A DNA stretch of 63,568 bases, from positions 1-63,568 of the IMG/VR virus record IMGVR_UViG_3300009678_000062; one strand, given 5' to 3'. Positions 752 to 63,568 of the stretch are shown here, one piece after another; positions within the stretch are counted from its first letter, which is position 1, and each line of letters begins with the position of its first letter. The notes under the pieces are model-generated. The model did not search any database and was not told where the DNA came from. It saw nothing but the letters and a program-made list of their open reading frames with translations. The stretch is from a virus (taxonomy: Duplodnaviria; Caudoviricetes). A program made the position numbers and the translations under genes.

Positions 752-778
752 TTTATGAGTGGGTGACTATGGATAGTG

Positions 779-800
779 AGGGGGCGGCAAACCGCCCCCT
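779..800 (-). terminator. GC-rich hairpin after the AAA ATPase, followed by a palindrome instead of a U-tract
   Basis: AGGGGGCGG-CAAA-CCGCCCCCT, a perfect 9-bp stem abutting palindrome 764-779. Confidence 0.55.
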
Positions 801-807
801 TCGTTCC

Positions 808-1947
808 TCAGCGGAACTGCTGCATCAGCGCCATCAGGGAGCTGTTCTTCTTAGCCCACGCGGTGAACGCCGGGCTGAGCGCCAGCATCGGCATCCGCCC
901 GCATGCTGCCTTGGCGAACGTCACGGCAAACTCCTTGCCAAGCCGGTCGACATAGATCAGCACCTGCTGTGCGTTCTTCTCACTGACGCGATGGGCCAGC
1001 GAGTAGCAAACCAGGTAGCGGGCATCCAAGCTCTCGGGCACCGGGCAGGTCGTCGGGTTGGCAACGATCTCCTCGATGGTCGGCACCTCGTTTTCCAGAC
1101 GAATGAAGTTCTGCACCGCCATCGCCGTCTCGTGGCCGATCATTCCCGCCATCGCCTCGAGCGTCGTACCGTCGGTCGGGATGCGCCCACCATGCTGCTT
1201 CATCCACTGCACGAGGAACTTGGACGTCATCTCATGGGTACGCGGCGTCATCCACGGCCCCTGCTTCTCCGGCACGCCGGGCTGGAGCAGGATCTCGGGA
1301 TGCTGATGGGCGAACGCCACCAGCGGCGGCAGCACGCCACGCTCGACCAGTGCGGCTTCGGTGCCGACGATGTCGTCGGTCAGCTTGAGCCACGCCACCC
1401 GGTTGATGATGAAGTCGTACTCCTTGGTGACGCCCGAACGATGGGCGGAACCGTTGGTAAGGGCGATGATGCCCCAGCCATCCCCGGTGCTGAACCCGGG
1501 CAGGTGGAACGGACCTAGTTCGCCCTTGAGCAGGAGCTGGGCGGCAGCGCGCTTGCTGTCACTCTCACCCTGTCCCCACTCCTCGATCACCAGAAGGCCC
1601 CTACGATAGGCGTAGACGGGCTTCCCTTCGTCGCTGAGCATCCACGGCGGCAGCGAGGGCTCGGTCACGGCAGTCGGCTCCACGCCCGCCGTACCGGGCT
1701 TGACGAGCTTGCCCTCGTCGTTCCACCAGCGCTCGCCCTTGTACTGGTAGCCCAGCATCTCGGTCGGGCTCTGGGTCGCCATGAACAGCGTCTGATAACC
1801 CCACGTGTAGCCGTCACGATGGGTCAGATAGCGGATCATCTGCCGCATGAACTCGGACTTGCCACGTCCGGGCTCGCTCTCGATGACGACGGCAATACCG
1901 GCGTCCATGAAGGCGACGAGAACGTCGCGTAGATCTGAAAGTCGCAT
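808..1947 (-). CDS. MoxR-like AAA+ ATPase
   Basis: Walker A SEPGRGKS, Walker B-like LLVIEE, sensor-1 IIALTN, arginine-finger region FIINR and a TPR motif. AGGAG RBS. VWA partner at 62139-63491. Confidence 0.85.
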   Translation of the reverse strand: MRLSDLRDVLVAFMDAGIAVVIESEPGRGKSEFMRQMIRYLTHRDGYTWGYQTLFMATQSPTEMLGYQYKGERWWNDEGKLVKPGTAGVEPTAVTEPSLPPWMLSDEGKPVYAYRRGLLVIEEWGQGESDSKRAAAQLLLKGELGPFHLPGFSTGDGWGIIALTNGSAHRSGVTKEYDFIINRVAWLKLTDDIVGTEAALVERGVLPPLVAFAHQHPEILLQPGVPEKQGPWMTPRTHEMTSKFLVQWMKQHGGRIPTDGTTLEAMAGMIGHETAMAVQNFIRLENEVPTIEEIVANPTTCPVPESLDARYLVCYSLAHRVSEKNAQQVLIYVDRLGKEFAVTFAKAACGRMPMLALSPAFTAWAKKNSSLMALMQQFR

Positions 1948-1980
1948 GTGTGTTCTCCTAGTGTGGGTTACTATTGGAAG

Positions 1981-2271
1981 TTAGGTGGGTGGCTCGACCA
2001 GATACAGCTGCGCTACGAGCAGCTGGTATCCCTCTTCGGTCATCAGTTCATTGAGCGTGATCCGCCGCCTGAACCGCAGTTCGTTGGTGAGTGGGTGCTT
2101 GGCAACGATGAAGTATGCTTCCTCCTTGGGTTGGGGATATTGCGTAGTGGATGGGTAGTCGACGTAGACACTGAAGTACAAGCGCTTGAAGTCGGAGTTG
2201 AGCAGGTCGGCTAGGTTTTTCGCTACCTGCCAACCGGGGTGACGGGCATCCTTTACGGTGAAACGAGCCAT
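1981..2271 (-). CDS. hypothetical protein, paralogue of the next gene
   Basis: C-terminus YQLLVAQLYLV. The TAA stop is the first triplet of palindrome 1968-1983. Confidence 0.7.
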   Translation of the reverse strand: MARFTVKDARHPGWQVAKNLADLLNSDFKRLYFSVYVDYPSTTQYPQPKEEAYFIVAKHPLTNELRFRRRITLNELMTEEGYQLLVAQLYLVEPPT

Positions 2272-2274
2272 AGC

Positions 2275-2541
2275 TCACCTCCGGGGGGTGACCAACCACA
2301 GCTGAGCGAGTAGCAGGTCGAACCTGTCCTGACGCCAGAGCTGGTCGAGACGGATATGCTGGTGGTAGCGCAGCTTGGCAGGATGGTTGGCGATAGTGGC
2401 TTTGATGCTCATGTAGTAGTAACCGTCGCCGCGAAGTTTAAAGCGACGGCAGACGAACTCCAGCTCCGGGAAACGCTCCCGGAGCCAGTACTCAAGGCGC
2501 TGCGGCTTACGCCAGCCATGGGGTAGGTGGTGACTTTCCAT
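2275..2541 (-). CDS. hypothetical protein, paralogue of the previous gene
   Basis: C-terminus FDLLLAQLWLV. Likely ATG lies inside palindrome 2531-2546 (TAA-CT-ATG). The ORF track extends it to 2586. Confidence 0.65.
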   Translation of the reverse strand: MESHHLPHGWRKPQRLEYWLRERFPELEFVCRRFKLRGDGYYYMSIKATIANHPAKLRYHQHIRLDQLWRQDRFDLLLAQLWLVTPRR

Positions 2542-2543
2542 AG

Positions 2544-2771
2544 TTAGCTGGGGAGATCCCCGATGTAGAGGAACTCCTTCCTGCACAGGAGCACCATGTG
2601 CTGCTGGAATGCGCTAAGTTTGTCGTAGATCTCCCGGTTGATCCGCAACAGGTTCTGGTCGATCTCGAGCACCGCCACGAGATCGTAGTCGGACCACGGC
2701 AGGTCGTAGCGGATGAGACGGGGCGGACCGTTATCCGGCACGAGGGCGAAGTCGCTTCCAATGTCACGCAT
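2544..2771 (-). CDS. hypothetical protein
   Basis: AAGGAG before ATG 2771 (the ORF track starts at 2810). Stop lies in a palindrome. Confidence 0.65.
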   Translation of the reverse strand: MRDIGSDFALVPDNGPPRLIRYDLPWSDYDLVAVLEIDQNLLRINREIYDKLSAFQQHMVLLCRKEFLYIGDLPS

Positions 2772-2806
2772 GTTGATCACTCCTTTGTAAGTGAAGGATC
2801 GCAAGA

Positions 2807-3001
2807 TCATTCGCTCGTGTTGGACGAGCGATTGCGATCCTCAAGGTGGTTAAAGTCAGCGTAGTGCATCAGCGCAGTAAATAGCTCGGTAGCGCTGGCT
2901 TCGCTCCGCGTGGATGCGATGATGGTATAGGGTTTATAAACTCCCAATCCCTGCTTCGCCACGTGGAACGTATTACCATGCTTGACGATGATGTACCTCA
3001 T
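2807..3001 (-). CDS. hypothetical protein (64 aa)
   Basis: ATGA coupling with the upstream gene; GAAGGAG RBS. Confidence 0.65.
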   Translation of the reverse strand: MRYIIVKHGNTFHVAKQGLGVYKPYTIIASTRSEASATELFTALMHYADFNHLEDRNRSSNTSE

Positions 3002-3237
3002 TCTCCTTCGTCCTCCCTTGCTGCAGCCAGCATACGCCGGCGCTCATTGTTGAGTGCTTTGGTGATCAGCCGCGCGCGAGCGCACGCGGTGTAGTCATCG
3101 GGGCCCGCTACGAGGGCGATGGGGGTGCTATGACCGGTGCCGACCATGTACAGCCATCTGGATCGGTCGTCGGTAACTTGAGCACCGCCATGTATGGCAT
3201 CGGGGTGCATTACCACCTCAAACCAGTAGTTACTCAT
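2998..3237 (-). CDS. hypothetical protein (79 aa)
   Basis: 4-bp overlaps with both neighbours; GGAG RBS. Confidence 0.65.
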   Translation of the reverse strand: MSNYWFEVVMHPDAIHGGAQVTDDRSRWLYMVGTGHSTPIALVAGPDDYTACARARLITKALNNERRRMLAAAREDEGE

Positions 3238-3629
3238 TGGTCATCTCCGAGGGGAATGAGGTTGGTGAGCGTCAGCTGGGCGAGCTCGATCGCGGCAATG
3301 CACTGGTCGATCATGGGGTTGTCCGCCTCCATCATCTGCATGCCGTAAAGGAACCCGAGCGGGGCATTGAGCCCTTGCATGGCGTTGGCGATACGAACCG
3401 CGTCTAGGTTGTGTTTGACAGCCGGCTTGTTGGCGGCAGCGTGAAGAGTGTCCAAGATGTCGGCCATGCTGTCGGGGCTTCCGGCAACGTTGCGACGCTT
3501 GCTACGTTTGATTGGCACGAAGCGCCACTTGCCGGGCACGTTCACACCACGATGGATGAACGGACGCACCCATTCGGCACGCTTGCCCTCGGGTGCTGCA
3601 GGGGGATTGTGTTGATCATATTTGGTCAT
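3234..3629 (-). CDS. hypothetical protein (131 aa)
   Basis: GAGGA RBS immediately after palindrome 3642-3657. Confidence 0.7.
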   Translation of the reverse strand: MTKYDQHNPPAAPEGKRAEWVRPFIHRGVNVPGKWRFVPIKRSKRRNVAGSPDSMADILDTLHAAANKPAVKHNLDAVRIANAMQGLNAPLGFLYGMQMMEADNPMIDQCIAAIELAQLTLTNLIPLGDDQ

Positions 3630-3641
3630 GTGGATGGTTCC

Positions 3642-3830
3642 TCACTTTCGATAGTTAGGGTCGTCGTAGTAGTCAGGATGCAGGTTGGGTAGCGAGCGCC
3701 ACAGTGCATGGCACTCGATGATCGCCCTCTTCCAGCGGGCATCGTTGGGCTTGATGGTCGGATCGTTGAGAACGGCGTTCCGAATGCGCGTGATCTCAGC
3801 GATGATTTCTTGTGGAGTGCGTGAGGGCAT
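3642..3830 (-). CDS. hypothetical protein (62 aa)
   Basis: GAGGAG RBS; ends within a palindrome. Confidence 0.6.
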   Translation of the reverse strand: MPSRTPQEIIAEITRIRNAVLNDPTIKPNDARWKRAIIECHALWRSLPNLHPDYYDDPNYRK

Positions 3831-4356
3831 TACGCATCTCCTCGTCGGTTTTGAGCTGCTCGCACCACCACACGAACATCTCGGGTTCTAGGCTCCAGCA
3901 CCAGCTGACGGTGTTGTGGAAGTGCTTGCTCTGATCCAGCAGCAGGAAGCTGGAGTAGAGCGGCAGCAGGTACTTGCGGCGGGGCATTTCGAGCAGCACC
4001 CTGGTTTGGTAGATGTTGGTGCTGTGGACGTAACGCCCCCCATTACGCACGTGGATGAACGGGTAGTGGAGATCGCGCGCGAGATTGCGGAAGTACTGTT
4101 GCCAGTCCCAGCGACTGCGACCCCAGCCGCCGCTGTAGGGGCGGATCGGCATCCAGTGGTGCTCACGCAGATCAGCCCAGTGATGGTGGATGAAGTGGTT
4201 GGTGCGTCGCTCCAGCACATCCATGTCGATCGCCAGCCGCTTGCGCGTCTCCTCGAGCTGGCGGTGCTGGCTGTCGAGCTGGGAAGCGTGATAGCTGGCG
4301 AGCTCGGTAGCGATGTGGGTGAAGGTGGTGAAAGTGGGTGGGGGCGTTGAGGTCAT
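3796..4356 (-). CDS. hypothetical protein (186 aa, His/Trp-rich)
   Basis: GGAGGAG RBS; ATGA overlap with the upstream gene. Confidence 0.65.
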   Translation of the reverse strand: MTSTPPPTFTTFTHIATELASYHASQLDSQHRQLEETRKRLAIDMDVLERRTNHFIHHHWADLREHHWMPIRPYSGGWGRSRWDWQQYFRNLARDLHYPFIHVRNGGRYVHSTNIYQTRVLLEMPRRKYLLPLYSSFLLLDQSKHFHNTVSWCWSLEPEMFVWWCEQLKTDEEMRNALTHSTRNHR

Positions 4357-4571
4357 AGTTCGATCTCCTCCACGGCAGTGATGAACTCCATGTCGATCGC
4401 CAGCAGCAGGTCATGCTTGCCGGGATGGACGACGTGCTGCAGGTAGACGATGTCGGGCGCTGGCGCGCCCGGGGTCGCAGATGCGGCGACACGTCCAGTG
4501 TGGACGTGCCCACCTAGTGTGTAGATGTTGTAGTTGCGCTCGGGTTCGAGCGTGATGTACTTGCTTTTCAT
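4353..4571 (-). CDS. hypothetical protein
   Basis: GAAGGAG RBS before ATG 4571; coupled to both neighbours. Confidence 0.6.
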   Translation of the reverse strand: MKSKYITLEPERNYNIYTLGGHVHTGRVAASATPGAPAPDIVYLQHVVHPGKHDLLLAIDMEFITAVEEIEL

Positions 4572-4768
4572 CCGAATTTCTCCTTCTGGTTGGCACGGAT
4601 GCGGGCTGCGATATGCAATTGCCAAGTGTCGTAGTCACGTGCGACGTGACGGTAGCTGAGGTACTCAACCTCGGTCAGTTCAGTGCTGCCATGGCTGGCG
4701 AGCTCGGGGTCGTCGGTGAGATAGAAATCACCAGTCGCGTCGTTCTGTGCGATCCAGAGTTTCATCAC
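4568..4768 (-). CDS. hypothetical protein (66 aa)
   Basis: GGGAG RBS, GTG start, 4-bp overlaps. Confidence 0.6.
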   Translation of the reverse strand: MMKLWIAQNDATGDFYLTDDPELASHGSTELTEVEYLSYRHVARDYDTWQLHIAARIRANQKEKFG

Positions 4769-4983
4769 TTGCTCCCATATTTGGCTGCTGCACCACAGGT
4801 GGGGCAGGGCGAGTAGCCCGCAAGTTCACCGTCAGTGTCAGTGTCAGTGTCCTCCATATCCACGAGCCGACGCCAGACGCGGTGCATCGTGTCGCCGGGG
4901 GTGATGTAGCCTTCATCGTCAGCGATGCCGCACGCATGCACCAGCGCTGCGAGTTCTTCCTGTGTGAGTTCTAGCTTAATCAT
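4765..4983 (-). CDS. hypothetical protein with a C-terminal CPTCG knuckle
   Basis: Tiles in the operon; purine-rich RBS. Confidence 0.6.
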   Translation of the reverse strand: MIKLELTQEELAALVHACGIADDEGYITPGDTMHRVWRRLVDMEDTDTDTDGELAGYSPCPTCGAAAKYGSK

Positions 4984-5219
4984 TATCCTTCTCCTCTGGG
5001 TGTCATCGGTATCACCTTCATCTTGTTGCCCAGCTTGAGCAACCGGGTGGTGGGGTTGGGCGACAGATATCCCGACTCCTGCAGGAACCAGTCGCGGTGG
5101 AAGTTGGGGTTGGCACGAGCGCAGACGTCAGCGATCTGCAGGATGAGTGCGTTCCCCACGTTGTTGACGCGCAGGCAGTGCGCCAGCTCGTCGAAGATGC
5201 GCTTGTTGACGTTGGTCAT
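4983..5219 (-). CDS. hypothetical protein (NPNFHRDWFL motif)
   Basis: ATG 5219 takes its GGAG SD from palindrome 5223-5238. Confidence 0.65.
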   Translation of the reverse strand: MTNVNKRIFDELAHCLRVNNVGNALILQIADVCARANPNFHRDWFLQESGYLSPNPTTRLLKLGNKMKVIPMTPRGEG

Positions 5220-5248
5220 GGTTAACTCTCCATAGTTAGGGGTGGGTG

Positions 5249-5437
5249 TTACCAGCCAGCGGTCACCACGAGGAGCTTGCCCTCGGGCGTGAACTTCCAC
5301 TGGGTGAATGCCTGAGTGAAGCCGTCATGCTCGATGTCGATAGCGATGAACCCGTCAGGGTTACGATCGGGCTCCTCGCGAGTGTGGTCGATGCCAGCAC
5401 GATCGAGCATCGCTTCGATTATCTGCAGATCCGTCAT
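5249..5437 (-). CDS. hypothetical protein
   Basis: GAGGAG RBS directly after palindrome 5449-5464. Confidence 0.65.
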   Translation of the reverse strand: MTDLQIIEAMLDRAGIDHTREEPDRNPDGFIAIDIEHDGFTQAFTQWKFTPEGKLLVVTAGW

Positions 5438-5461
5438 TGTGGTTCTCCTCACTTTTGATAG

Positions 5462-5707
5462 TTAGTGGTACTGCGCCAGCACGCTGGCAGCGGGGTAAAA
5501 CGTATCGCCCATGCCGTGCAGCACGCTCACCCATTCTGCAGGTGGCGCGCCTATGGGGGATGCAGGGAGTTTGTACGAGCGTTTCTCTCCTTTGGTGAAG
5601 TTGGTTGCATCGTAGAAGTTGTGCCAGATCCGGCGCTTGCGGTGCCAGTAGCGGCGTTGGCCGGAGATGATGCAGACGATGGCGTAGGTGCTTGGGGTGG
5701 TGCTCAT
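5462..5707 (-). CDS. hypothetical protein
   Basis: GGAG RBS; flanked on both sides by palindromes. Confidence 0.6.
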   Translation of the reverse strand: MSTTPSTYAIVCIISGQRRYWHRKRRIWHNFYDATNFTKGEKRSYKLPASPIGAPPAEWVSVLHGMGDTFYPAASVLAQYH

Positions 5708-5739
5708 GTTATACACTCCATAGTTGTTACTATTGATAG

Positions 5740-6162
5740 TTAATCGTGGTACTTGTGTCGTGTCCGGCCCGGATGGAATGCGCGGCCAAGGCGACGATCC
5801 TCCTTTGCGAATTTACGGAACTCCTCGAGAACGATGGGCCCGGAATGATCTCGCTCCCATTCCTGCAAGCGGCGCTCAATCGTCGTACGGGACACACCGC
5901 ATAGATCAGCCAAGCGCTGCAGTTTGTAATCGTGTGGCTTGTGGGGATTGAGCGCCGTGAGCACCGGCACCGTCATGGTGGGGTACTTGGAAGCTAAATC
6001 TGCAAGGTACACACGGTATTTTCCTGGATGGTTAAAACGCCAGTTGGATAGCTTCTGGCGTAATGTTTGTGGAACATGATCAAGTCGACGGCACGCTTCA
6101 TCGCGTGAGATCGGCTCGCCTGTTTCATCATCCAATATTTCAATATTGGCACGTCGTGGCAT
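5740..6162 (-). CDS. putative helix-turn-helix DNA-binding protein
   Basis: KLQRLADLCGVSRTTIERRL fits the HTH pattern; AAGGAGG RBS. Confidence 0.65.
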   Translation of the reverse strand: MPRRANIEILDDETGEPISRDEACRRLDHVPQTLRQKLSNWRFNHPGKYRVYLADLASKYPTMTVPVLTALNPHKPHDYKLQRLADLCGVSRTTIERRLQEWERDHSGPIVLEEFRKFAKEDRRLGRAFHPGRTRHKYHD

Positions 6163-6319
6163 GGTACATCCTCCTTTGTAAGTTTACGGATATTAAAGGC
6201 TTATTCATTGGCAGCAGACCGCAGAAATCCGCCAATTTTGTGTTGTTAGCACGATTATCAACATCTCAAAGAAGGGCACCCCCCCTTGGCCGTTGGGGGC
6301 CTCGGGGCTGCAGGCGGTA

Positions 6320-6626
6320 GTCCCCTCTACGTAGCATCATATATATATATTCTAAGAAGTATAAATAATAATCTCTTGATGGTACAAATACAACCTTGAG
6401 ACGTGTAAGAAAGGGCGGAGATCAGCCACTCTGCCGTTTTCACCGCGCCGCGCTACTCTACAAGTTGTAAATTTGATAATCTAAATGTAGTAATTATTGT
6501 AATCTAAATGTAATATTACTACCAATAGTAAGCGTCACCGTTCCCCGTACGCGTGGGGAATGCGCACTGCTCTAAATTTTTTTTAAACATAGTTAACTAT
6601 TGATAGTTAAATGAAATAAACAAATG
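6320..6626. other. AT-rich non-coding region, candidate replication origin or control region
   Basis: (AT)n run near 6338-6350, TAATCTAAATGTA repeated at 6477 and 6500, palindromes at 6516 and 6594, poly-T at 6577-6584. Confidence 0.5.
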
Positions 6627-6655
6627 AAAAAATGGGGAGGGCTTGCGCCCTCCCC
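6627..6655 (-). terminator. intrinsic terminator
   Basis: Minus strand GGGGAGGGC-GCAA-GCCCTCCCC-ATTTTTT. Confidence 0.85.
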
Positions 6656-6661
6656 GTAACG

Positions 6662-6868
6662 TTAGCGAAATCTAAATCCGCTCGTGCCGTCAACACCGGT
6701 TTTGTAATATCCTCGATGATCGAGGTCGGGAAATCTTTCTGTAACTTCAGCGAACGCAAAGCGCCCTCTGAAATCATCGTGAAAGATTGCCCACGTCCAG
6801 TTTATTCCCGGATCAATACATCCACCGTATTGCCGGATGATTACATCGATCATATCGCGCTTTGACAT
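6662..6868 (-). CDS. hypothetical protein (68 aa)
   Basis: GGAG RBS after palindrome 6882; has its own terminator. Confidence 0.7.
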   Translation of the reverse strand: MSKRDMIDVIIRQYGGCIDPGINWTWAIFHDDFRGRFAFAEVTERFPDLDHRGYYKTGVDGTSGFRFR

Positions 6869-6934
6869 TGTAAGGCTCCGTTAACTATTGATAGTGAACG
6901 GCCCGGCACCGCGTGCGTGATGAATGCGCGGGCC

Positions 6935-6960
6935 AAAAAATAGGAGGGCCGAAGCCCTCC
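6935..6960 (-). terminator. intrinsic terminator
   Basis: Minus strand GGAGGGC-TTCG-GCCCTCC-TATTTTTT (cUUCGg loop). Confidence 0.85.
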
Positions 6961-6976
6961 CATAGTTACGGGAACC

Positions 6977-7837
6977 TTACCTCCCGCGCTTGCGTGCGGT
7001 CTGGACAACGGCGGCAGCGATCTTTACCGTTTCCTTTTCACGCGTGACCAGCGTTGCCATCATTTCATCGGCGGCAGCGCTCGCCTCGCGTGCTTCCTCC
7101 TCTTTCGCGGCGCGATCCTTGGCAATCTGTGCGTCATCCTCCATATTCTTGAGAACCTTGTATTGCGCATCAATCAACGCAACCAGCGTCTCACGTTTCG
7201 CGCGGCCCTCAAAGGTATCGTACGCCTCATTCTTTTCGTTGGTTAGCGTGTCTTTCAGGAGTTCAAAAGCCTTGAGCCATTTGCCCGATAGCTTCACTTC
7301 TGGCGTCTTAGCCTTCCGCACTATTGGTAGTAAGGCGTCGGCGCTGAGACGCGCCTTAGCCTTGATAGTCTCACGTCCCACGTCGGCATAGGTCTGAAAT
7401 ACCGACTTGGCATCCGTTCCGAGTTTCGCCCGTGCCTCGCGAGCATCGGCCAGCACAAATAGACCGTTGATACCGTCCGATGCGTTGAGCAATCCGAGAT
7501 TGCACGCGACACGCAATTCGCTCGCCTTAGTCGCGGCACTCTCTTCAGTTAGTTCCACGCCATGGACGGCGCGTTCCGTGACGTGACGGGACATTTGCGA
7601 CAGGAAACGCGACACGCTGTCATCCTTGGGGAGGGCCTTACCGTCCGGCCCTTTCTTGCCCTCGTTACGATTATCCATCGTGGCAACGCCATCCATGGCG
7701 AGCGTCACAATCTGGGTGAACCGTGCGGGCCAAACATCCTTGTGGATGATAAACGCCTCGCCCGCTTCATTCGCCGCCGCAATGAGCATTGCGTCAGTGT
7801 TATCCCCCACGAGGGCAGGCTTTGCTTTGGTAACCAT
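6977..7837 (-). CDS. hypothetical alpha-helical protein in a stand-alone transcription unit
   Basis: GGAGA RBS before ATG 7837 (the ORF track starts at 7873); own terminator; two palindromes upstream. Confidence 0.8.
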   Translation of the reverse strand: MVTKAKPALVGDNTDAMLIAAANEAGEAFIIHKDVWPARFTQIVTLAMDGVATMDNRNEGKKGPDGKALPKDDSVSRFLSQMSRHVTERAVHGVELTEESAATKASELRVACNLGLLNASDGINGLFVLADAREARAKLGTDAKSVFQTYADVGRETIKAKARLSADALLPIVRKAKTPEVKLSGKWLKAFELLKDTLTNEKNEAYDTFEGRAKRETLVALIDAQYKVLKNMEDDAQIAKDRAAKEEEAREASAAADEMMATLVTREKETVKIAAAVVQTARKRGR

Positions 7838-8135: not shown

Positions 8136-8143
8136 GTTCCAGC

Positions 8144-8172: not shown

Positions 8173-8178
8173 CCCACC

Positions 8179-57004: not shown

Positions 57005-57188
57005 CGGTTTCTCCTTCACTTTTGATAGTTAGCACCCCCTCCACCGGTACGTCGCGCCACTCATACTGGGTGATAAAACGCCCGCCGGGTCTCTGCACGG
57101 TGACTTCCCATTGCTGCTGCAGGACGTAGCGCCCGTCGTGTTTGACGAAGCGCAGCGTTGCCGTCGGAAAAGAGTCGATCTCATCCAT
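56991..57188 (-). CDS. hypothetical protein (65 aa)
   Basis: LRFV...VLQQQW...EWRDVP. Confidence 0.6.
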   Translation of the reverse strand: MDEIDSFPTATLRFVKHDGRYVLQQQWEVTVQRPGGRFITQYEWRDVPVEGVLTIKSEGETDDRH

Positions 57189-57677
57189 TGCTGACCACCG
57201 TGTTGCGTGGAGCTCTCTTGATCAGGTGGTCGTTCCACGTCACGAACCCGCGCAGGGTGGTGACCTCCGGCCACGTGCCTTTGAACGTCACCGCGCGATC
57301 GTCGAGAGTGACGAACGCTGACGGCTTGCTGACGGGAAACTCCAGCTTGTTGACGAACTTCAACGCTGCCTCGCGCGGCGCTCCTTCTGTCTCCTTCTGG
57401 TACATGAAGTACTCGATGGCGTTGGCTTTGAACCACGCATGCATCGCATCACGCCCAGCTGCGAACTCGCTGCGGCTGGAGTAGATGCAGACACGGAAGT
57501 GCTTGAACGCTTCCTCGAGAAACTCGAACAGTCCCGGCACTGGTTCGTCGGGGATCGTCCACGCGTTGACCCAGCCGGACGTGTACATCGAGCACACGCC
57601 GTCGAAATCCAGGCAGAGTATGGGCTTATGATCCATTTGTTTCTCCTTCACTTTTGATAGTTAGCACCCCCTCCACC
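57007..57677. repeat. exact 39-bp direct repeat (57007-57045 and 57639-57677)
   Basis: GTTTCTCCTTCACTTTTGATAGTTAGCACCCCCTCCACC occurs twice and contains a palindrome and an RBS. Confidence 0.93.
57181..57636 (-). CDS. HAD-superfamily phosphatase-like protein
   Basis: LCLDFDGV, IYSSR, KP...LDDRA. Confidence 0.8.
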   Translation of the reverse strand: MDHKPILCLDFDGVCSMYTSGWVNAWTIPDEPVPGLFEFLEEAFKHFRVCIYSSRSEFAAGRDAMHAWFKANAIEYFMYQKETEGAPREAALKFVNKLEFPVSKPSAFVTLDDRAVTFKGTWPEVTTLRGFVTWNDHLIKRAPRNTVVSNG

Positions 57678-57741
57678 AGGATGCGGCGGCATTGGCGGAG
57701 GGGGTTCTACACGGGCGCCACCTTGGCAGACGCCCGCAAGC

Positions 57742-58038
57742 TCAGTACAGGTTATCGAGGAACGTTTTCAGCGCGAACAGCTCCTCGTCATTGCTGACGC
57801 GGAACACCGTACCGCCGGCTTCCTCGATCCGCCGCCGGATCAGCTTCTGCATGTTGGTCAGATCCTCGCCCTCACGTTTGGTTTCGATGGCGATAAATCG
57901 ACCGCAGTAGCACACGAAATAATCCAGCGAACTGGCCTGATACTGCATCGGCACCGGCATGAAGTGGTAAAGTTTGTCGTAGGTACCGAGCAGCTTCTTA
58001 ACTTTTGCTTTTACTTTTCCTTCCGGCGTCGTTGCCAT
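57742..58038 (-). CDS. VRR-NUC endonuclease
   Basis: TPEGKVK...D...GRFIAIETK...Q...IEEAGG. Confidence 0.85.
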   Translation of the reverse strand: MATTPEGKVKAKVKKLLGTYDKLYHFMPVPMQYQASSLDYFVCYCGRFIAIETKREGEDLTNMQKLIRRRIEEAGGTVFRVSNDEELFALKTFLDNLY

Positions 58039-58079
58039 CGGGTTTCTCCTCTGTGGGTATCGTTCGTCCTCGATTATAC

Positions 58080-58246
58080 TCATCCATACTGATCAGGATG
58101 ACGTCGCCGGGCTTGTGCCAGCTGCCGACGTGTTCGATCACTTCGACCTCGGCATAGCCGCAGTTCGGCGTGATCCTTCGCATCCGGCTGATCATCGGCT
58201 TGATCCCGACCGACATGCGTTCCTTGTGAGTGGGTTTAGGTATCAT
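58080..58246 (-). CDS. hypothetical small protein, boundaries uncertain (ORF track 57998-58246)
   Basis: Fills the gap between the two nuclease genes; 3' part overlaps VRR-NUC. Confidence 0.4.
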
Positions 58247-58251
58247 TTAGC

Positions 58252-58947
58252 TTAATCCCATGTGCTTACACCGTGAAACTCACACGTTGTGACTGGACAC
58301 CATTGCCTGCATAGCTTGTTGTGGGTGGGTGGAAAAGTCTGGGTATCGTAGGCGCGTCTCAGTGCCTCGATCCTGGGTGCGAGCTGCCTCCAGAACTTCG
58401 GCATGTCCCTGCGTTTGAATATCTCTGATGTGGTCGCGTCCTCCTTCAGCCAGATGAACTCGGAACGTACGGCCTGTACGTCCGGATGATGCGAGAAAAC
58501 ACACTCGGCGACCAGCGCCAGCTGGACGCTGTCCTCAAGTATCTTGCCGGTTTTCCAGTCGTAGGTTCCGGCAACATTACCGTCGATCTGGATGACATCC
58601 GCCACCGAGCGGAACCAGACGCCGTTATCGAAGTAGCCGCACGGACTCTTGTCCTCCTTCAGTGCCAGCTTCTGCTCGACATAGATCTTCCCGCCGCCTT
58701 CCTCGATCTTAGCGCACCACGGCTCGAGCATGTCGTGGAGCTCTTTCGGCAGCGGCGTACCGTTAGCGAGACGCTTGGCCGCTGCCGTGTGGACGGCGGC
58801 ACCCCACGACAACTGCTCGCTATCTTCCTTGTACTTCTTCAAGATATCGATCTGCAGGTGCCGGCGAGGGCAAACTTCATAATTTTTCAGCTTGCTATAG
58901 CTCCAGGCAAACGCCTTGGGGCTATGGCGCGTGGTAACCGCGACCAT
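58252..58947 (-). CDS. PD-(D/E)XK (RecB/Cas4-like) exonuclease
   Basis: WSYSKL...CPR, G...H, EQKL, D...DWKTGK, QL, LCRQWCPVTTC. Confidence 0.85.
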   Translation of the reverse strand: MVAVTTRHSPKAFAWSYSKLKNYEVCPRRHLQIDILKKYKEDSEQLSWGAAVHTAAAKRLANGTPLPKELHDMLEPWCAKIEEGGGKIYVEQKLALKEDKSPCGYFDNGVWFRSVADVIQIDGNVAGTYDWKTGKILEDSVQLALVAECVFSHHPDVQAVRSEFIWLKEDATTSEIFKRRDMPKFWRQLAPRIEALRRAYDTQTFPPTHNKLCRQWCPVTTCEFHGVSTWD

Positions 58948-58966
58948 GCTAACTCCCAATAGTTAA

Positions 58967-58989
58967 CAGAGGGCGCGAAGCGCCCCCTG
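58967..58989 (-). terminator. hairpin followed by palindrome 58950
   Basis: Minus strand CAGGGGGCGC-TTC-GCGCCCTCTG (G-U pair valid on the minus strand), then T-TAACTATTGGGAGTTA. Confidence 0.55.
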
Positions 58990-58993
58990 CAGC

Positions 58994-59695
58994 TCATACA
59001 TACTCGTCGTCGCCGCCCACCTCGACATTGACATCAGCCGTATCCGGCATGATCCCCGTTCCCGGTGCCGCTATCGGTCCGGTCGGCGTTGGCGTTGACG
59101 TTGCCGCTGCATTTCTGGCGGCAATGGAGCCCGCTGCCGCGCCTGCCAAGGTCTGCCGCTTCTTGTACTTACCCGGCGCGAGCGCCGTCCGTCCCGCCGC
59201 CAGCCGCGCCTTGTTGGTTTTTGCCAGGGATGTCGTAGTGCCCTGCAGGAGCCCCCGGTTGGCGGCTTTCTCCTCCGGGGTCATCTGAGTGCGGGTGAGG
59301 CGCTGCGCCGCCTGTGCGGCCCTTACACGCTGCGCCTCGATGATCCCCTGCTGCCTCGCCTGGGCGACCTTCTGCAGTGCGGCGCGCGTATCGGAACCGG
59401 GACCGGCCATACCCGTCACCGGGCGCGTCGACGCCTGACGTAGATACTGCCGGGCAGACTCAACCGACTGCGTCTGCTTCTTCGCTTTCTTCGCCGTCGC
59501 CTGCGCCGCTGCCTTGTCCTTCTGGAACTTCGCCTTCTCCTTCGCCTGCGCCGCTACCTCCTCCGGCGTCGGCTCCGCCGGCGTCGTCGTAGTATCCGTC
59601 GTCGAAGCTGTCGTCTCCTTCTCCTTCTCCTTCGGCTTCACCGGGGTAGCTGACTTGGCTTCCGCTGTCTTGTTCTTGTCCTTTTTCTTCGCCAT
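58994..59695 (-). CDS. Lys/Ala/Thr-rich basic protein, histone H1-like composition
   Basis: AGGAG RBS before ATG 59695; low complexity, basic. Confidence 0.65.
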   Translation of the reverse strand: MAKKKDKNKTAEAKSATPVKPKEKEKETTASTTDTTTTPAEPTPEEVAAQAKEKAKFQKDKAAAQATAKKAKKQTQSVESARQYLRQASTRPVTGMAGPGSDTRAALQKVAQARQQGIIEAQRVRAAQAAQRLTRTQMTPEEKAANRGLLQGTTTSLAKTNKARLAAGRTALAPGKYKKRQTLAGAAAGSIAARNAAATSTPTPTGPIAAPGTGIMPDTADVNVEVGGDDEYV

Positions 59696-60047
59696 TGACC
59701 GCTCCTATGGGTTGGCGTGCCATCATCTCGGCAACGCGCTTCTTGGTATCATCGTCGAGATACCAACCGAGCCCCCGTCGGGTACGAACGATGATACCCT
59801 GCGGAGTGAGCAGCTTACGCAGGCGCCAGACGGCGACCTGCGCATCTGCAACGATGTTCATTTCATACTGCAGAAGGTCGCGCGACACGAACTCTTTCGC
59901 AACCAGCAATCCGAGAAAATCAGCTAACCTCGGGGGCAGCGTGAACACATGCTGCAGGTGACGATCGTCCTGCATCAGCGCCTTTTGCAGCTGACGCACC
60001 CTGGCTTTGAGGATGATGTTCTCACGTTCATAGTTGTGTTCGCTCAT
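59460..60047 (-). CDS. OmpR/CtrA-type winged-helix (Trans_reg_C-like) regulator with an acidic tail
   Basis: LLVAKEFVSRD...AQVAVWRLRKLL...IVRTRRGLGWYL; no receiver domain. Confidence 0.75.
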   Translation of the reverse strand: MSEHNYERENIILKARVRQLQKALMQDDRHLQHVFTLPPRLADFLGLLVAKEFVSRDLLQYEMNIVADAQVAVWRLRKLLTPQGIIVRTRRGLGWYLDDDTKKRVAEMMARQPIGAVNGEEKGQEQDSGSQVSYPGEAEGEGEGDDSFDDGYYDDAGGADAGGGSGAGEGEGEVPEGQGSGAGDGEESEEADAVG

Positions 60048-60053
60048 TTGGAC

Positions 60054-60082
60054 ACCTTACCAAAAGATTACATGCTTGTCAA
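60054..60082 (-). promoter_or_regulatory. sigma70 promoter for a leaderless transcript
   Basis: TTGACA-17-TAAGGT-6-ATG (60047). Confidence 0.7.
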
Positions 60083-60104
60083 GGGGGTGGTTAACTACGG
60101 ATAG

Positions 60105-61985
60105 TTACCCCACCATCTCGCCATAGCTCGGTCCAATCTTCACTTCGGATGCGAGCGGCAGTTCCGGTGCCCAGTTCGGACGCATCGCTGCCATCTCGAG
60201 CAGGATACGTTTAACCTGATCGGCGTGCTTCTCCTTGACCACGAAGATGAGCTCATCGTGGACCTGATGGGCGAAGCGCAACCCAGCTCCGAATGCGCGC
60301 AACGCCAGATCCTTGATGATGATCTGGGCCAGCGCCTGCGTGATGTTCTCCAGGGTTTTGGCACCGTAGAGAAACTTAAAGCGTCCGGCATAGGCGAAGC
60401 GCCACTGCATCTGGTTATACCCGGAAGCATTCGGTGCGGTATTGATCTGCTCCAGATCGTCGTAGAACAGCTTGAACCCGTTCGGCAGCAGGATCTCGTG
60501 CTTGTCGAACTTGCACGGGCCGAACATCCACGTGCCACCCCGAGCCAGTGTCGGGATGCCAGTGGACTGCAGCGCCGCCCATCCCTTCTGGATATCGGAG
60601 TACTTGTAGCGGTACTTGTCGACCACCTTCTTGGCGACTTCCGGCGTGAGCTCGATCGCCCGGCCAAGCTGGTTCTTCGAACCCGACTTGACGCTGATGA
60701 CGAACTTGTTGTGGGACATGCCGTAGCCCAACCCGAGGATCGCCGTCTTGCCGATGAAGCGGTAATCCGGGTTGACCTTCTTGCTGACCTGAACGTCGAA
60801 CACGTCCGCAGCGAACTGCGAGTAGACATCCTCACCCAGCGCAAACGCCTCCAGCAGGTCGAGCTGCTCGCAGATCCACGCCACGATACGGGCTTCGATC
60901 TGGCTCATGTCGATGCTGACCAGCAGGTATCCCTTGGGGGCTTGCAGCGCGCTACGCAGCGGGGATTTGCGTGGCAAGTTCTGCATGTTGAGCCTCATGT
61001 CCCCACTCAGGCGATGGGTGTGGGCACCGGAGAACCGCAACGGGATGGGCATCCAGCGCTCCCCCACCGGCCACGACAAACTACTGATAGTTATCAACCG
61101 TTGGGTCCGGGTTTCCTCCAGCGTGGTTTTATGTCCCAAGCGAGCAGCCACCAGCGCCTGCACGCGGGGATCCTCATGCTCCGCCAGATCGATGAAGCCG
61201 CTATCGGTTTTGGCAAAAGCCCAGGTTTTGTTGCCGGTGGTGAGCGATTGCTTGCGAGGCGGATCGACCCCCAGTTCCTGCAGCAGCGAGGCGAACTTGT
61301 CGTTTGAACGCAGTTCGCCGGCGTCGACCACGGAGGTCAACGCCAGCATCTCTTCCTTTTGCTTGAGCACATGGGCGAGGTGATCAATGAGCAGCTCGCG
61401 GTCCAGCCTGAACTGCGGCAGCACGGTCGCTTTGAGTACCAGATCCATGACATCCAGCTCGCGTGCCGGGAAATCGCGGATCAGGCGCTTGAAGATCGAA
61501 GCACATTTCTCATTGTCGTCGCAGCAGTAACTAGCCAGCTCGCGATGCAGCGACGGATTACGGATGATTTCGGCGTAATGCACGCCGACCATCTTGGTCA
61601 GCGTCGTGCCTTTGGCACCCAAGCCGAGGTGCTTGCTGACAGCGTCGAGCGATACGGATTTGAGCTTGTAGCTGAGCATTGCCCGCACCATGCCCATCGC
61701 ATCGATCAGCTTGTGCGGCACCCAGCTGTAGCGCCATGCAAGGATGGCAGCGTCGAACAGGGCATTGTAGGTGACGACGGCTTTCTCCGATCCTATGCTT
61801 AGTTCCTTGATCAGGTCAGGTATATCCGGACCATCGATCCATTGCGACTTATCCGTCAAGCCATGCTTGACGGCAACGCCGAGCGCTTCAAAGCGTGGGT
61901 CGAGGATATACTCGATAGGTGTCATCTTACGCAGGGTATAGTCCTTGCTGTAGTAAGTTTCAAAGTCGAGGATGATGAGATCCAC
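60105..61985 (-). CDS. polA: family A DNA polymerase with a 3'-5' exonuclease domain
   Basis: LDFETY, YNALFD, HTHRLSG...NMQNLPR, DMSQIEAR, R...K...LGLGYG, ENITQA, QVHDE. Confidence 0.94.
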   Translation of the reverse strand: MDLIILDFETYYSKDYTLRKMTPIEYILDPRFEALGVAVKHGLTDKSQWIDGPDIPDLIKELSIGSEKAVVTYNALFDAAILAWRYSWVPHKLIDAMGMVRAMLSYKLKSVSLDAVSKHLGLGAKGTTLTKMVGVHYAEIIRNPSLHRELASYCCDDNEKCASIFKRLIRDFPARELDVMDLVLKATVLPQFRLDRELLIDHLAHVLKQKEEMLALTSVVDAGELRSNDKFASLLQELGVDPPRKQSLTTGNKTWAFAKTDSGFIDLAEHEDPRVQALVAARLGHKTTLEETRTQRLITISSLSWPVGERWMPIPLRFSGAHTHRLSGDMRLNMQNLPRKSPLRSALQAPKGYLLVSIDMSQIEARIVAWICEQLDLLEAFALGEDVYSQFAADVFDVQVSKKVNPDYRFIGKTAILGLGYGMSHNKFVISVKSGSKNQLGRAIELTPEVAKKVVDKYRYKYSDIQKGWAALQSTGIPTLARGGTWMFGPCKFDKHEILLPNGFKLFYDDLEQINTAPNASGYNQMQWRFAYAGRFKFLYGAKTLENITQALAQIIIKDLALRAFGAGLRFAHQVHDELIFVVKEKHADQVKRILLEMAAMRPNWAPELPLASEVKIGPSYGEMVG

Positions 61986-62011
61986 TGTATTCTCCTATGG
62001 TTGGGTGGGTG

Positions 62012-62041
62012 CTTGACATTGTAATCGTAGGGCATTAGATA
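62012..62041 (+). promoter_or_regulatory. sigma70-like promoter pointing against the local gene direction
   Basis: C-TTGACA-17-TAGATA; predicted start near 62047-62048. Confidence 0.55.
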
Positions 62042-62047
62042 GTTGAC

Positions 62048-62133
62048 AGGGCCGATTGATCCCGGTCCTCTCCTAGTGGGTGGGAGCTCAACGAAGGGAT
62101 CGCGGTTTCCTCACCGCGATCCCTTTAACTTTT
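62048..62133 (+). ncRNA. candidate small antisense RNA with three hairpins and an anti-RBS segment
   Basis: AGGGCCG/CGGTCCT and CTCCT/GGGAG stems (G-U pairs valid on + only); 13-bp stem 62094-62125 followed by TAACTTTT; upstream promoter. Confidence 0.55.
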
Positions 62134-62138
62134 GATAG

Positions 62139-63491
62139 TTAGTCGTGCGGCACGACGACCACCTCGCCGAACGGATACGCCTCCGGCTGCAGCCCGATCG
62201 TCCCCCAGAACGTGGGATAGCCCGGTGCCCGCACGGGGAATTCGCCATACCCATCGGTCAGAAAAACCAACGCTTCCGGCCCCAGCCGGTTGTCCTCGAT
62301 ATAGTCGAACACCGGCCTAAAGTCGGTACCGCCACCACCCGGCGCTCCCTTGCGTCGGATCGTCTCGAGATCCATGGCATCCTCGATCTCGTCGACCTGA
62401 CCCACTTCAGCGTCGCACCAGATGACGATGATGCGCTTGGGCTTGAGCTGGGCAAGGATATTGCTCAAGCATCCGAACCACAACGACATCTCTTTATGAC
62501 CGATCGACCCCGAGGTATCGACCCCGATGGCGATCAGGTCACAGCCGAACCCAGCCCGGCTCGGTGCCCAGATATCCCGCACGATCAGCTTGCGGTCGGC
62601 TTTACGCCAGTTCCACGATCCACCCCCGATCTTGCGGGCGAACCATGACTGGACGACATCGGTCCAATCGACCTTGTCCTCGATCACTTCCTCGAACAGC
62701 CGCAGCAGACCGGCAGGCATCTTGCCCTGCGACTTGGCCATCTCGATCGCCGCCTTGATGTGGACGTCCCACTCGGCTTGGTTATGCTCGCTCTCGGCCT
62801 GATTGGGATCGATCTCGTCGACGGTGCCGGGCTGCAGGTGCACGTCAAATCCACCCGGCGCACCACCCGGGTTATCTTCCTCCCCTTCCTCCTCTTCCTC
62901 GTTTTCCCCGGGGGGCGGAGGTTGACCACTACCACCGAGTTGACCGGGCAGATCGCCCGGCTTCTTCCCTCTGCCACCAGTGTCGCGGAACAGCTTGGCG
63001 TAGACGTCGAGCACGCTATCCATCGCCGTGGCGATCCTCAGATCGTACAATGCTTCAGCCGGCAGCTTGCCGATCTTGCTATCGACCAGGATGGCGTTGA
63101 CCACGTAGTCGAGGGCACACTGGATCGCTACTGGATGGAACGGCAGCGACTTGCCGTTGCTCAGCAGCACCGTCTTCGAGCGGTTGAGCTTGTGCAGCAG
63201 CATGATGTGGTTGAGGATGTTGTGCAGGATCTCATGTGCAAGGATGAACAACCGCTCCATCAGCGAATGCTGGAAGAAGGTGTTGACGTTGATGACGACG
63301 CTGTTGCCGTCGGTGGCTGCCGTCGGCACGCGGGGGTCGTCGACGAACACGGCGATGTGGTCCGCATCCTTGCTCATCAGCTTGTAGAACAGGTGGGTGA
63401 GCGCCGGGGCGTACCACATCAGGACGGCACGGGTGTCGTCCCATTCCTTCAGTTGCTGCGGGGTTGGCTTTACTCTGATCAGCTCGGTCAT
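62139..63491 (-). CDS. metallopeptidase-VWA protein (DUF2201-like), partner of the MoxR-type ATPase
   Basis: TAATDG, LAHEILH (HExxH), DY.VN; MIDAS VDTSGSI; GGGGTDFRPVF; LTDGYG. Confidence 0.88.
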   Translation of the reverse strand: MTELIRVKPTPQQLKEWDDTRAVLMWYAPALTHLFYKLMSKDADHIAVFVDDPRVPTAATDGNSVVINVNTFFQHSLMERLFILAHEILHNILNHIMLLHKLNRSKTVLLSNGKSLPFHPVAIQCALDYVVNAILVDSKIGKLPAEALYDLRIATAMDSVLDVYAKLFRDTGGRGKKPGDLPGQLGGSGQPPPPGENEEEEEGEEDNPGGAPGGFDVHLQPGTVDEIDPNQAESEHNQAEWDVHIKAAIEMAKSQGKMPAGLLRLFEEVIEDKVDWTDVVQSWFARKIGGGSWNWRKADRKLIVRDIWAPSRAGFGCDLIAIGVDTSGSIGHKEMSLWFGCLSNILAQLKPKRIIVIWCDAEVGQVDEIEDAMDLETIRRKGAPGGGGTDFRPVFDYIEDNRLGPEALVFLTDGYGEFPVRAPGYPTFWGTIGLQPEAYPFGEVVVVPHD

Positions 63492-63524
63492 GGGTGTAGC
63501 TCCTTGTGGGTTAACTATCGGTAG

Positions 63525-63568
63525 TTACTCGGCTTCCTCCTCGCGCTTCGGGGCGTTGATCACCAGGC
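63525..63568 (-). CDS. 3' end of the junction-spanning hypothetical protein
   Basis: In frame with 1-247; TAA is the first triplet of palindrome 63512-63527. Confidence 0.8.
   Translation of the reverse strand, partial: LVINAPKREEEAE

Follow-up and report, generated by a model that had tools for sequence, protein, structure and literature searches.

The DNA analysed here, hereafter the window, is the complete record, 63,568 bp long, of a soil or groundwater phage (IMG/VR record IMGVR_UViG_3300009678_000062; Duplodnaviria, Caudoviricetes), and it carries 33 exact copies of a 16-bp palindrome, TNACT-N6-AGTNA, dispersed among its genes. The genes run leftward in 1-11313 and 48855-63568 and rightward in 11385-48853. 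In the left arm are small early-type genes together with those of a MoxR-like ATPase and the large terminase; the middle block encodes an SU10-type portal, the capsid, tail parts and three giant virion proteins; and the right arm encodes a DNA polymerase, an SNF2-type helicase, a DUF927 primase-helicase, a RecB-type exonuclease and a VWA/metallopeptidase protein. By our own gene calls, about 95% of the window is coding. Neither a tRNA nor an Rfam family match was found in it, and a family search of its large open reading frames (ORFs) found no phage RNA polymerase or sigma factor. Searches of the window for an integrase (PF00589), a resolvase-type recombinase (PF00239) and a ParB N-terminal domain (PF02195) detected none; the first two bear out a remark in an earlier note on this DNA that no integrase is obvious.

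We first consider whether the palindrome could be a product of base composition. Against the 33 copies observed, 100 dinucleotide-preserving shuffles gave 0.27 on average and never more than 2, and 40 runs of a first-order Markov control gave 0.30 on average and never more than 1; a control pattern, reversed without complementing, had no match in the window. Within coding sequence as delimited by our gene calls there are eight copies, where 500 synonymous-codon shuffles averaged 0.40 and never exceeded 3, an enrichment of about 20-fold. The dinucleotide, Markov and synonymous-codon controls together rule out chance or composition as the source of the copies. The codon-preserving shuffle was a check that the earlier note had proposed, and its count of about 34 copies was close to the exact number, the first copy lying at 764-779 and the last at 63512-63527.

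The consensus of the copies is TAACTATCGATAGTTA, that is, TAACTAT-CG-ATAGTTA. The invariance of ACT and AGT follows from the search pattern itself. At the four inner positions the counts among the 33 copies are T 27, C 22, G 21 and A 32, as expected of the ATCGAT-like spacer described before, and conservation continues to the dyad centre. The half-site TAACTAT occurs 31 times inside full sites and 4 times outside them; since half-sites seldom stand alone, the unit is the whole palindrome. When copies are oriented with the sense strand, the fit to TAACTAT counts 20 for the upstream half and 11 for the downstream half, and in the centre pyrimidines prevail on the left side and purines on the right. 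Three further details of the earlier description were correct: there are three perfect 16-bp palindromes at the places it named (Table 1), 12 copies lie in the first 8 kb, and both minus-strand arms carry copies, as does the plus-strand structural block. Its word "lattice" must be given up, because the spacing is not regular: its coefficient of variation is 0.87, where random placement gives 0.96, and equal or greater regularity is seen in 28% of random sets.

Placement follows the gene borders. Twenty-six of the 33 copies are located at gene junctions or in non-coding DNA and the other seven deep within long genes, which, with about 95% of the window coding, amounts to a junction preference of roughly 50-fold. 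Among the 21 same-strand junction copies, the motif includes the upstream stop codon in 11, and the next start codon is 2-24 nt away in 17; at two copies, 5223 and 58950, the ribosome site lies within the motif. Counted from the gaps, 19 of the 33 intergenic gaps of at least 8 nt contain a copy. Five copies are grouped in two non-coding stretches, 6163-6976 and 7838-8178, and in the divergent control region two perfect or near-perfect copies stand side by side upstream of a promoter-like site. A strong GC-rich hairpin lies directly before six copies (764, 7946, 16814, 46149, 57648 and 58950) and after one; the six preceding hairpins are terminator-like but have no T-run, and copies 6594 and 6882 come after terminator-like hairpins with T-runs. 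Promoter-like sites adjoin only 2-3 copies, and consensus scans of the window for promoters and terminators gave counts not above shuffles. Two of the intragenic copies, 22874 and 23363, are bordered on either side by about 25 nt of common sequence, indicating a motif-bearing internal duplication in the 2145-aa gene (22850-23400).

Table 1. Copies of the palindrome in the window, with the candidate binder genes and the promoter-like site (strand given for genes and promoter; dG, folding energy of the hairpin named).
Feature	Position	Strand	Context
Palindrome	764-779		Junction of 808-1947 and 254-739; GC-rich hairpin just upstream (dG -24.8, q 0.003); next start about 24 nt away
Palindrome	1968-1983		Overlaps stop of 1981-2271; ATPase gene start 20 nt on; G001 variant at orthologous place
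Palindrome	2531-2546		Overlaps stop of 2544-2771; ATG 11 nt downstream
Palindrome	3642-3657		Final bases are stop of 3642-3830; 12 nt ahead of start 3629
Palindrome	5223-5238		3 nt ahead of start 5219; GGAG ribosome site in centre
Palindrome	5449-5464		Overlaps stop of 5462-5707; 11 nt ahead of start 5437
Palindrome	5727-5742		Overlaps stop of 5740-6162; 19 nt ahead of start 5707
Gene of 140-aa protein, marginal HTH_8	5740-6162	-	Tandem two-module fold; weaker candidate
Palindrome	6516-6531		In 814-bp AT-rich non-coding region upstream of 5740-6162
Palindrome	6594-6609		In 814-bp AT-rich region; about 25 nt past terminator-like hairpin 6655-6634
Palindrome	6882-6897		13 nt ahead of ORF 6662-6868; past terminator-like hairpin 6963-6940
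Palindrome	7912-7927		Divergent control region; adjoins promoter-like CGGACA-18-TATAGT at 7910-7881, minus strand
Perfect palindrome	7946-7961		Centre 34 bp from that of 7912; GC-rich hairpin before (q 0.002)
Excisionase/RdfS-like winged-helix gene	8179-8667	+	Sole plus-strand gene of left arm; weaker candidate
Perfect palindrome	14153-14168		Overlaps stop of 13577-14155; 16 nt ahead of start 14185
Palindrome	16814-16829		Past hairpin behind major capsid gene; 11 nt ahead of start 16841; G001 variant at matching place
Palindrome	22874-22889		Deep within 2145-aa gene 19172-25609; flanks identical to copy 23363
Palindrome	23363-23378		Deep within 2145-aa gene 19172-25609
Perfect palindrome	25754-25769		Deep within gene 25606-25914; no G001 counterpart at aligned place
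Palindrome	29350-29365		Overlaps stop of 29092-29352; 3 nt ahead of start 29369
Palindrome	32678-32693		Overlaps stop of 31370-32680; 5 nt ahead of start 32699; G001 variant at matching place
Palindrome	39360-39375		Deep within 2673-aa gene 37796-45817
Palindrome	41481-41496		Deep within 2673-aa gene 37796-45817
Palindrome	43551-43566		Deep within 2673-aa gene 37796-45817; no G001 counterpart at aligned place
Palindrome	46149-46164		Past GC-rich hairpin; 8 nt ahead of start 46173; G001 variant at matching place
Palindrome	47793-47808		Overlaps stop of 47514-47795; 10 nt ahead of start 47819
Palindrome	50530-50545		Overlaps stop of 50543-50701; 22 nt ahead of start 50507
Palindrome	52907-52922		Deep within primase-helicase gene 50722-53655
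Palindrome	55169-55184		22 nt ahead of start 55146
Palindrome	57016-57031		11 nt ahead of start 57004; within 3' end of 56991-57188
Palindrome	57648-57663		Past strong hairpin (q 0.000); 11 nt ahead of start 57636; G001 variant at matching place
Palindrome	58950-58965		Past hairpin; 2 nt ahead of exonuclease start 58947; ribosome site within copy
Candidate binder ORF, best candidate	59460-60047	-	First ~125 residues (59673-60047) predicted as N-terminal coiled coil and OmpR/PhoB-type winged helix
Sigma-70-like promoter CTTGACA-17-TAAGGT	60054-60083	-	6 nt before ATG 60047; read by eye; same layout in G001
Palindrome	60092-60107		Overlaps DNA polymerase stop; ends 8 nt before -35-like CTTGACA of candidate binder; G001 variant at matching place
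Palindrome	62126-62141		Overlaps stop of 62139-63491; long hairpin downstream (dG -24.9); G001 variant at matching place
Palindrome	63512-63527		20 nt ahead of start 63491

The window belongs to a group whose closest cultured members are four Rhizobium phages of the RHph_TM3_14A type, with a capsid identity of 67%. At least 355 relatives of the capsid gene are present in one viral collection, and the best capsid matches among bacterial assemblies lie on phage-sized contigs from two Bradyrhizobium isolates and one Xanthobacteraceae metagenome-assembled genome; a nucleotide-level search of a phage collection with 20 kb of the window gave no match, and a search of sequencing runs listed no RNA run containing the phage. 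The group sample comprised 13 genomes: the window, its nearest full genome G001 (82% identity in the portal, 60-95% in most core proteins) and 11 further genomes. Three relatives, G006, G008 and G009, two of them classed as proviruses, encode a tyrosine integrase that is missing from the window and from the six other members examined, so that the group includes both temperate and apparently lytic phages.

All 13 genomes have a 15-17-bp palindrome of their own, in 6-47 copies each against at most 1.2 expected. Equivalent motifs in related phages, which the earlier note had suggested looking for, are thus present throughout, every genome with its own variant. G001 has no TAACTAT sites; it carries TTACTT-N4-AAGTAA instead (TTACTTTCGAAAGTAA), in 19-28 copies and in the same kind of place. 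Other relatives use TTACCT-N4-AGGTAA, TTACY-N6-RGTAA, TTACTC-N4-GAGTAA, TTACGCCC-N-GGGCGTAA, TCACGCCC-N-GGGCGTGA or TTCCTCGTACGAGGAA, and G004 keeps only the outer TTAC/GTAA and the spacing, with a centre that is not self-complementary; RHph_TM3_14A has 46 copies of TTAC-N7/8-GTAA. Where the flanks of the window and G001 could be aligned, the two phages have their own variant at the same place at seven of nine mapped sites, both misses being intragenic; between G005 and G007 the same holds for four of four. This concerted change at fixed positions is the strongest evidence for a trans-acting reader, encoded by the phage, that sets the sequence. A host factor, one of the binders proposed in the earlier note, is unlikely to be that reader, as close relatives at about 80% protein identity have different arms.

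A palindrome in this position could act in the transcript as well as in DNA. It would then be a stem-loop or a protein-bound RNA site between stop codon and ribosome site that couples translation, hides or presents the ribosome site, or marks processing. The location of the copies between stop codon and ribosome site suits such an element, as do the nearness of the start codon in 17 of the 21 same-strand junction copies, the stop codon that is part of the motif in at least 11 junction copies, and the unequal conservation of the halves relative to gene direction. In relatives, the right arm often contains the ribosome-binding site, as GAGGTAAC-N1-5-ATG, with GAGG just before the ATG and the left arm complementary to it. 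Relatives with GC-rich arms (G005, G007 and G011) would form stable hairpins, with medians of -8 to -10.6 kcal/mol. Two arm spacings are mixed within one genome in RHph (14 N5 and 32 N6), G006 (11 and 13) and G012 (12 and 11), which suits a hairpin better than a rigid dimer.

Several tests for pairing in RNA nevertheless favour DNA. The sense strand has 51 G-U-type mismatches and the antisense strand 49, so there is no sense-strand excess of G-U over A-C; in G004 C-A on the sense strand is commoner than U-G, and the central bases of its motif do not complement each other. At mirror positions, pairing is no commoner than column frequencies predict, or is rarer: the arms match one consensus independently, with no covariation beyond it. 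Folded as RNA hairpins, the window copies have a median of -2.1 kcal/mol, against -2.6 kcal/mol for random 22-mers. The conserved bases reach into the would-be loop, Rfam offers no match, and seven copies are deep in genes, where the motif is about 20-fold enriched. With no RNA-pairing signal and with hairpins no stabler than background, we read the palindromes as double-stranded DNA, putatively the sites of a phage-encoded protein. We likewise read the unequal halves and the ribosome site in the right arm as side effects of a DNA site squeezed between stop codon and ribosome site. Hairpin energies, wobble counts and pairing relative to column frequencies argue against a repetitive extragenic palindrome, an intrinsic terminator and an RNA stem-loop. 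A role on the transcript, for which the unequal halves (20 against 11), the pyrimidine/purine-biased centre and the ribosome site in the right arm still speak, we judge fairly unlikely.

Taken together, we propose that the 33 palindromes are dispersed operators in double-stranded DNA for one phage-encoded sequence-specific protein, that the best candidate for this protein is the product of the ORF starting at 60047, and that its binding affects polymerase elongation; as a whole, this proposal seems to us about as apt to be right as wrong. The protein would read two half-sites T-n-A-C-T-A-T set head to head. Since coding sequence cannot easily accommodate 16 fixed bases, its sites would have been fitted chiefly into short intergenic gaps, where many include the stop codon of the gene before. 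Such a system would exist throughout the phage group, and in each lineage protein and sites would drift together to a new specificity. The earlier note had imagined one protein coating the whole genome for silencing or as a roadblock. The copies do behave as the sites of one phage-encoded factor, given the variants of each genome and their concerted change at junctions, but coating and silencing found no support.

The ORF at 59460-60047 gave no family match when searched alone. Its first 125 residues are conserved in G001 (57%), G006, G008 and G009 by tblastn, and jackhmmer found the family in nine of the 13 group genomes; its homologue in RHph_TM3_14A is EVB41_062. Compared with solved chains, the family profile matched 5dcm and 5dcl of the PhoB family at E 3e-4, followed by 13 more OmpR-family rows at E 0.014-0.59; 15 of the 16 rows among the matches listed belong to the OmpR family, and they align over the recognition helix and the wing (RLRkkL ... 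vGY). No receiver domain was found at the N-terminus, which gave weak coiled-coil family matches only. The longer family members start with a heptad-like helix that could pair two chains. We therefore picture, from profile comparison, a candidate in which a coiled coil would pair two chains and be followed by a winged helix of the OmpR/PhoB type.

The distribution of this protein follows the arms of the palindrome. It is present in nine of the ten genomes with T[TA]AC[CT] arms and in none of the three with other arms; the tenth genome with such arms, which lacks it, is a record 74% complete. A single helix residue, immediately preceding V-A-x-[HWCF]-R-L-R, is Lys in six genomes and three further loci, whose arm base 5 is mostly C, and Gln, Asn or His in the window, G001 and G011, whose base is mostly T; at a fourth further Lys locus, L211, the base is mixed (12 C against 11 T). 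Usual preferences pair Lys with G and Gln or Asn with A, and the helix-to-base pattern fits them. Narrower alignments for this helix-to-motif comparison added near relatives only. The tracking of arm base by helix residue is suggestive, not proof. It answers the suggestion in the earlier note to look for covariation with a recognition helix, to the extent of one residue and at most three independent changes. That note had also listed 59460-60047 among its candidates, a choice now strengthened by the predicted coiled coil and winged helix, the presence in nine of 13 genomes and the helix residue, although the Pfam match stays below its cut-off.

The candidate gene would be read from a host-type promoter of its own with a palindrome just upstream, an arrangement that would allow autoregulation. 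The sigma-70-like promoter (Table 1) was missed by the consensus scan, and its second hexamer matches 3/6. The ATG at 60047 sits 6 nt past the -10-like TAAGGT with no ribosome site, at the same spacing as in G001, which by our own reading suggests a leaderless message. The ORF also overlaps a Lys/Ala/Thr-rich ORF, 58994-59695, by 236 nt in a different frame, and the overlap in G001 is about 520 nt. Third-position GC in the overlap favours the frame of the basic protein; the acidic tail of 59460-60047 may be untranslated, or the two ORFs may be linked by frameshifting.

As to the effect of binding, the bound protein would control host RNA polymerase on long multi-gene transcripts, its sites serving as roadblocks or insulators at gene junctions, as in mycobacteriophage stoperators. 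A start codon close behind the copies and the lack of a -10-like block make activation at each site unlikely. Given dependence on host polymerase and the few promoter-like sites, the simplest action of the bound protein would be on polymerase during elongation and at its own promoter. By analogy with known systems we regard this action as possible yet doubtful, and it is the weakest step of the explanation.

Besides the features listed above in favour of a transcript element, several observations weigh against the operator reading. Trans_reg_C is matched by five of eight family members with a best E of 0.0028, all under the Pfam cut-off; for the window protein the values are E 0.15 and 12.6 bits, below the curated cut-off of 26.2. 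In the family alignment, the sequences of G003, G004, RHph and G011 lack the N-terminal coiled-coil segment. OmpR/PhoB domains usually bind direct repeats. The three genomes that lack the candidate are also the most diverged, and the helix-to-base association comprises at most three independent changes. Finally, the window has no integrase, and a roadblock at every junction fits a lytic cycle poorly; a full block would be harmful.

A second alternative makes the palindrome part of a promoter: an OmpR/PhoB-like activator would replace the -35 contact, and host RNA polymerase would restart before many genes as a phage-specific middle or late class. Restart would be needed at the six copies that follow hairpins without a T-run and at 6594 and 6882, which follow hairpins with one. 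Two copies are closely followed by -35-like hexamers, proteins of the OmpR/PhoB type usually act as activators, and phage promoter systems typically have a specificity that shifts from phage to phage. Most copies, however, have a start codon 2-24 nt behind them, and at 5223 and 58950 the motif itself contains the ribosome site, which leaves no room for a -10 element and start site downstream of an activator. No conserved -10-like block follows the motif, neither a phage RNA polymerase nor a sigma factor was found among the large ORFs of the window, the element is symmetric, and seven copies are in genes. We consider this alternative quite improbable. Promoters for a phage polymerase, whether T7-like or N4-like, are dismissed because none of the large ORFs matched a polymerase family; to the resemblance between TCACTAT and the T7 promoter core we give no weight.

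A role outside expression, or a reader supplied by the host (genome folding, packaging marks, replication or priming, recombination joints, decoys), is highly improbable: the copies do lie in all three gene blocks, the window-specific gene 5249-5437 has one on either side, and G001 and G004 are spaced somewhat more evenly than random, but spacing in the window is not regular, no ParB-type domain was found there, and phages with about 80% protein identity have different arms. Recombination joints in particular find no support, with copies at 3 of 20 synteny breakpoints with G001 against 18 of 53 conserved junctions (Fisher p 0.15).

Apart from the ORF at 60047, a Pfam scan of the ORFs gave only two helix-turn-helix candidates, 8179-8667 and 5740-6162, both named in the earlier note. 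The first is a real, divergently transcribed gene: its third-position GC is 0.71 against 0.50 for the overlapping minus-strand ORF, it has homologues in six relatives, and jackhmmer found it in seven of the 13 group genomes. Its profile matches RdfS (8dgl) at E 3.8e-4, and in one temperate relative its homologue adjoins an integrase-like ORF. Three head-to-tail 15-bp repeats, TAAAAGCTGAAGAGT-like, lie just upstream at 8085-8134 and are possibly the binding sites of its product. Direct repeats there fit an excisionase-like protein better than the palindrome does; this conserved winged-helix gene, of a type that binds direct repeats, is a weaker candidate.

For the product of 5740-6162, the HTH_8 match reaches 23.1 bits against a cut-off of 22. 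Its AlphaFold2 model (pLDDT 79) shows a repeated strand-helix module, an internal sequence repeat is weakly supported (p about 0.03), with two like modules in the model, and the fold had no match in the PDB. A homologue among the group genomes exists only in G001 (28-30% identity), a large protein search returned no relative besides itself, and the Atlas leads (Sigma70_r4, HTH_17, ATP-cone) are all sub-threshold. The marginal family match keeps this candidate in view, while its tandem fold has no solved look-alike. In 10063-10737, the remaining candidate of the earlier note, no DNA-binding domain was detectable, and a search of 20 small early and replication-arm ORFs found no DNA-binding family.

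By analogy, the nearest counterpart on record is a dyad repeat found in Cluster O mycobacteriophages, the Corndog group. According to the available part of its description, this is a 17-bp repeat, 5'-TGTTCGG-N3-CCGAACA, with over 30 copies in each genome, of which many are intergenic, about a third fall in coding regions and most are not at promoters; the phages have no integrase and form no stable lysogens, the repeats do not mark rearrangement joints, and the authors predict a dimeric DNA-binding protein while leaving the function unknown (PMC4351075). Set against that description, the window likewise has more than 30 dyad copies with invariant inverted arms and a variable centre, mostly intergenic with an intragenic minority, mostly away from promoters and rearrangement joints, and no integrase. 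Host phylum, virion type and sequence all differ, which makes it an analogue, not a homologue, and its copies lie much closer to stop codons and ribosome sites. The available Cluster O account has neither a concerted change of the motif across the family nor a named candidate binder. The window system is thus of the same kind as the Cluster O repeats, in another phage group and with another sequence, tighter on gene borders, and with concerted evolution and a candidate reader.

Stoperators are, again by analogy, the closest case with a known mechanism and the model for the proposed elongation block. They are asymmetric 13-bp sites oriented with transcription and read by the monomeric two-domain immunity repressor of temperate phages, which blocks elongation. 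Those of the Cluster A mycobacteriophages L5 and Bxb1 are treated in the available parts of two accounts (PMC9283540, PMC6550527). Like them, the palindromes are present in tens of sites genome-wide in short intergenic gaps, with a consensus that differs among relatives. Stoperator sites and repressor specificity diverge together, whereas here the co-change of the protein comes down to one candidate residue. The site is palindromic with a mild half-fit bias only (20 against 11), an integrase is absent, and the candidate is of another fold family.

One regulator with many scattered operators is also known from phiC31 of Streptomyces, with its conserved inverted repeats, and from P1, with its dispersed C1 operators; both phages are temperate with a known repressor, and their copy numbers are lower. 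The comparison with dispersed operators drawn in the earlier note was therefore apt. The candidate itself resembles OmpR/PhoB effector domains (Trans_reg_C; 5dcm, RstA, WalR) in that its profile aligns over recognition helix and wing. It differs in having an N-terminal coiled coil instead of a receiver domain, in being about 125 aa long and phage-encoded, and in having as putative target an inverted, not a direct, repeat. A literature search in a limited collection without supplements found nothing on the RHph_TM3_14A-type group or its repeats.

Phages that are not temperate have been known to carry dispersed dyad repeats since at least 2015, in the available text without a function or a binder. 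The present group offers a trait found in all 13 genomes, a sequence that co-evolves at fixed positions, and a candidate protein with a residue-to-base correlation; its cultured Rhizobium members make experiments feasible. If the sites set transcript boundaries through a bound protein, this would be a general means by which phages lacking a polymerase organise their expression, and the group would also provide a set of orthogonal protein-operator pairs. As a conjecture that we think distinctly unlikely, an integrase-less, apparently lytic group would divide its host-transcribed genome by junction sites, with an early winged-helix protein, made from a leaderless message, that would occupy 30-47 palindromes at gene borders, determine the extent of polymerase read-through and diversify in specificity as fast as an immunity system, which would amount to heteroimmunity or exclusion without lysogeny. 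Co-infecting related phages would then be unable to read or silence one another's genomes.

Some further features of the window are recorded here. The 814-bp AT-rich non-coding stretch 6163-6976 contains two copies of a unit in which a T-run terminator-like hairpin is followed by a palindrome. Repeated words resembling ATCTAAAT and an (AT)n run are also present there, and the stretch may serve as an origin or as a control region for early genes. The word CCACCCAC occurs 10 times (e.g., at 1985, 50522 and 55160) against 2.4 expected, on the minus strand each time, and 3 of the 10 occurrences adjoin a palindrome; G001 has similar ACCCAC runs after its motif.

The plus-strand gene 8179-8667 and the minus-strand terminase gene 8600-10045 are convergent and overlap by 68 nt (8600-8667), and 6977-7837 yielded neither a family nor a fold lead. 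Two of the giant virion proteins have recognisable parts: a DarB-like antirestriction region at the end of 37796-45817 (plus strand, 2673 aa) and a LysM/transglycosylase segment in 32699-37789 (plus strand, 1696 aa). Between primase and helicase, the minus-strand gene 53719-54747 encodes a conserved 342-aa protein with four invariant cysteines and an acidic tail. Its model shows weak likeness to the single-strand DNA-binding cores of T4 gp32 and RB69 and to RPA, every fold match having E >0.001, and the product is probably a gp32-like zinc single-stranded DNA-binding protein.

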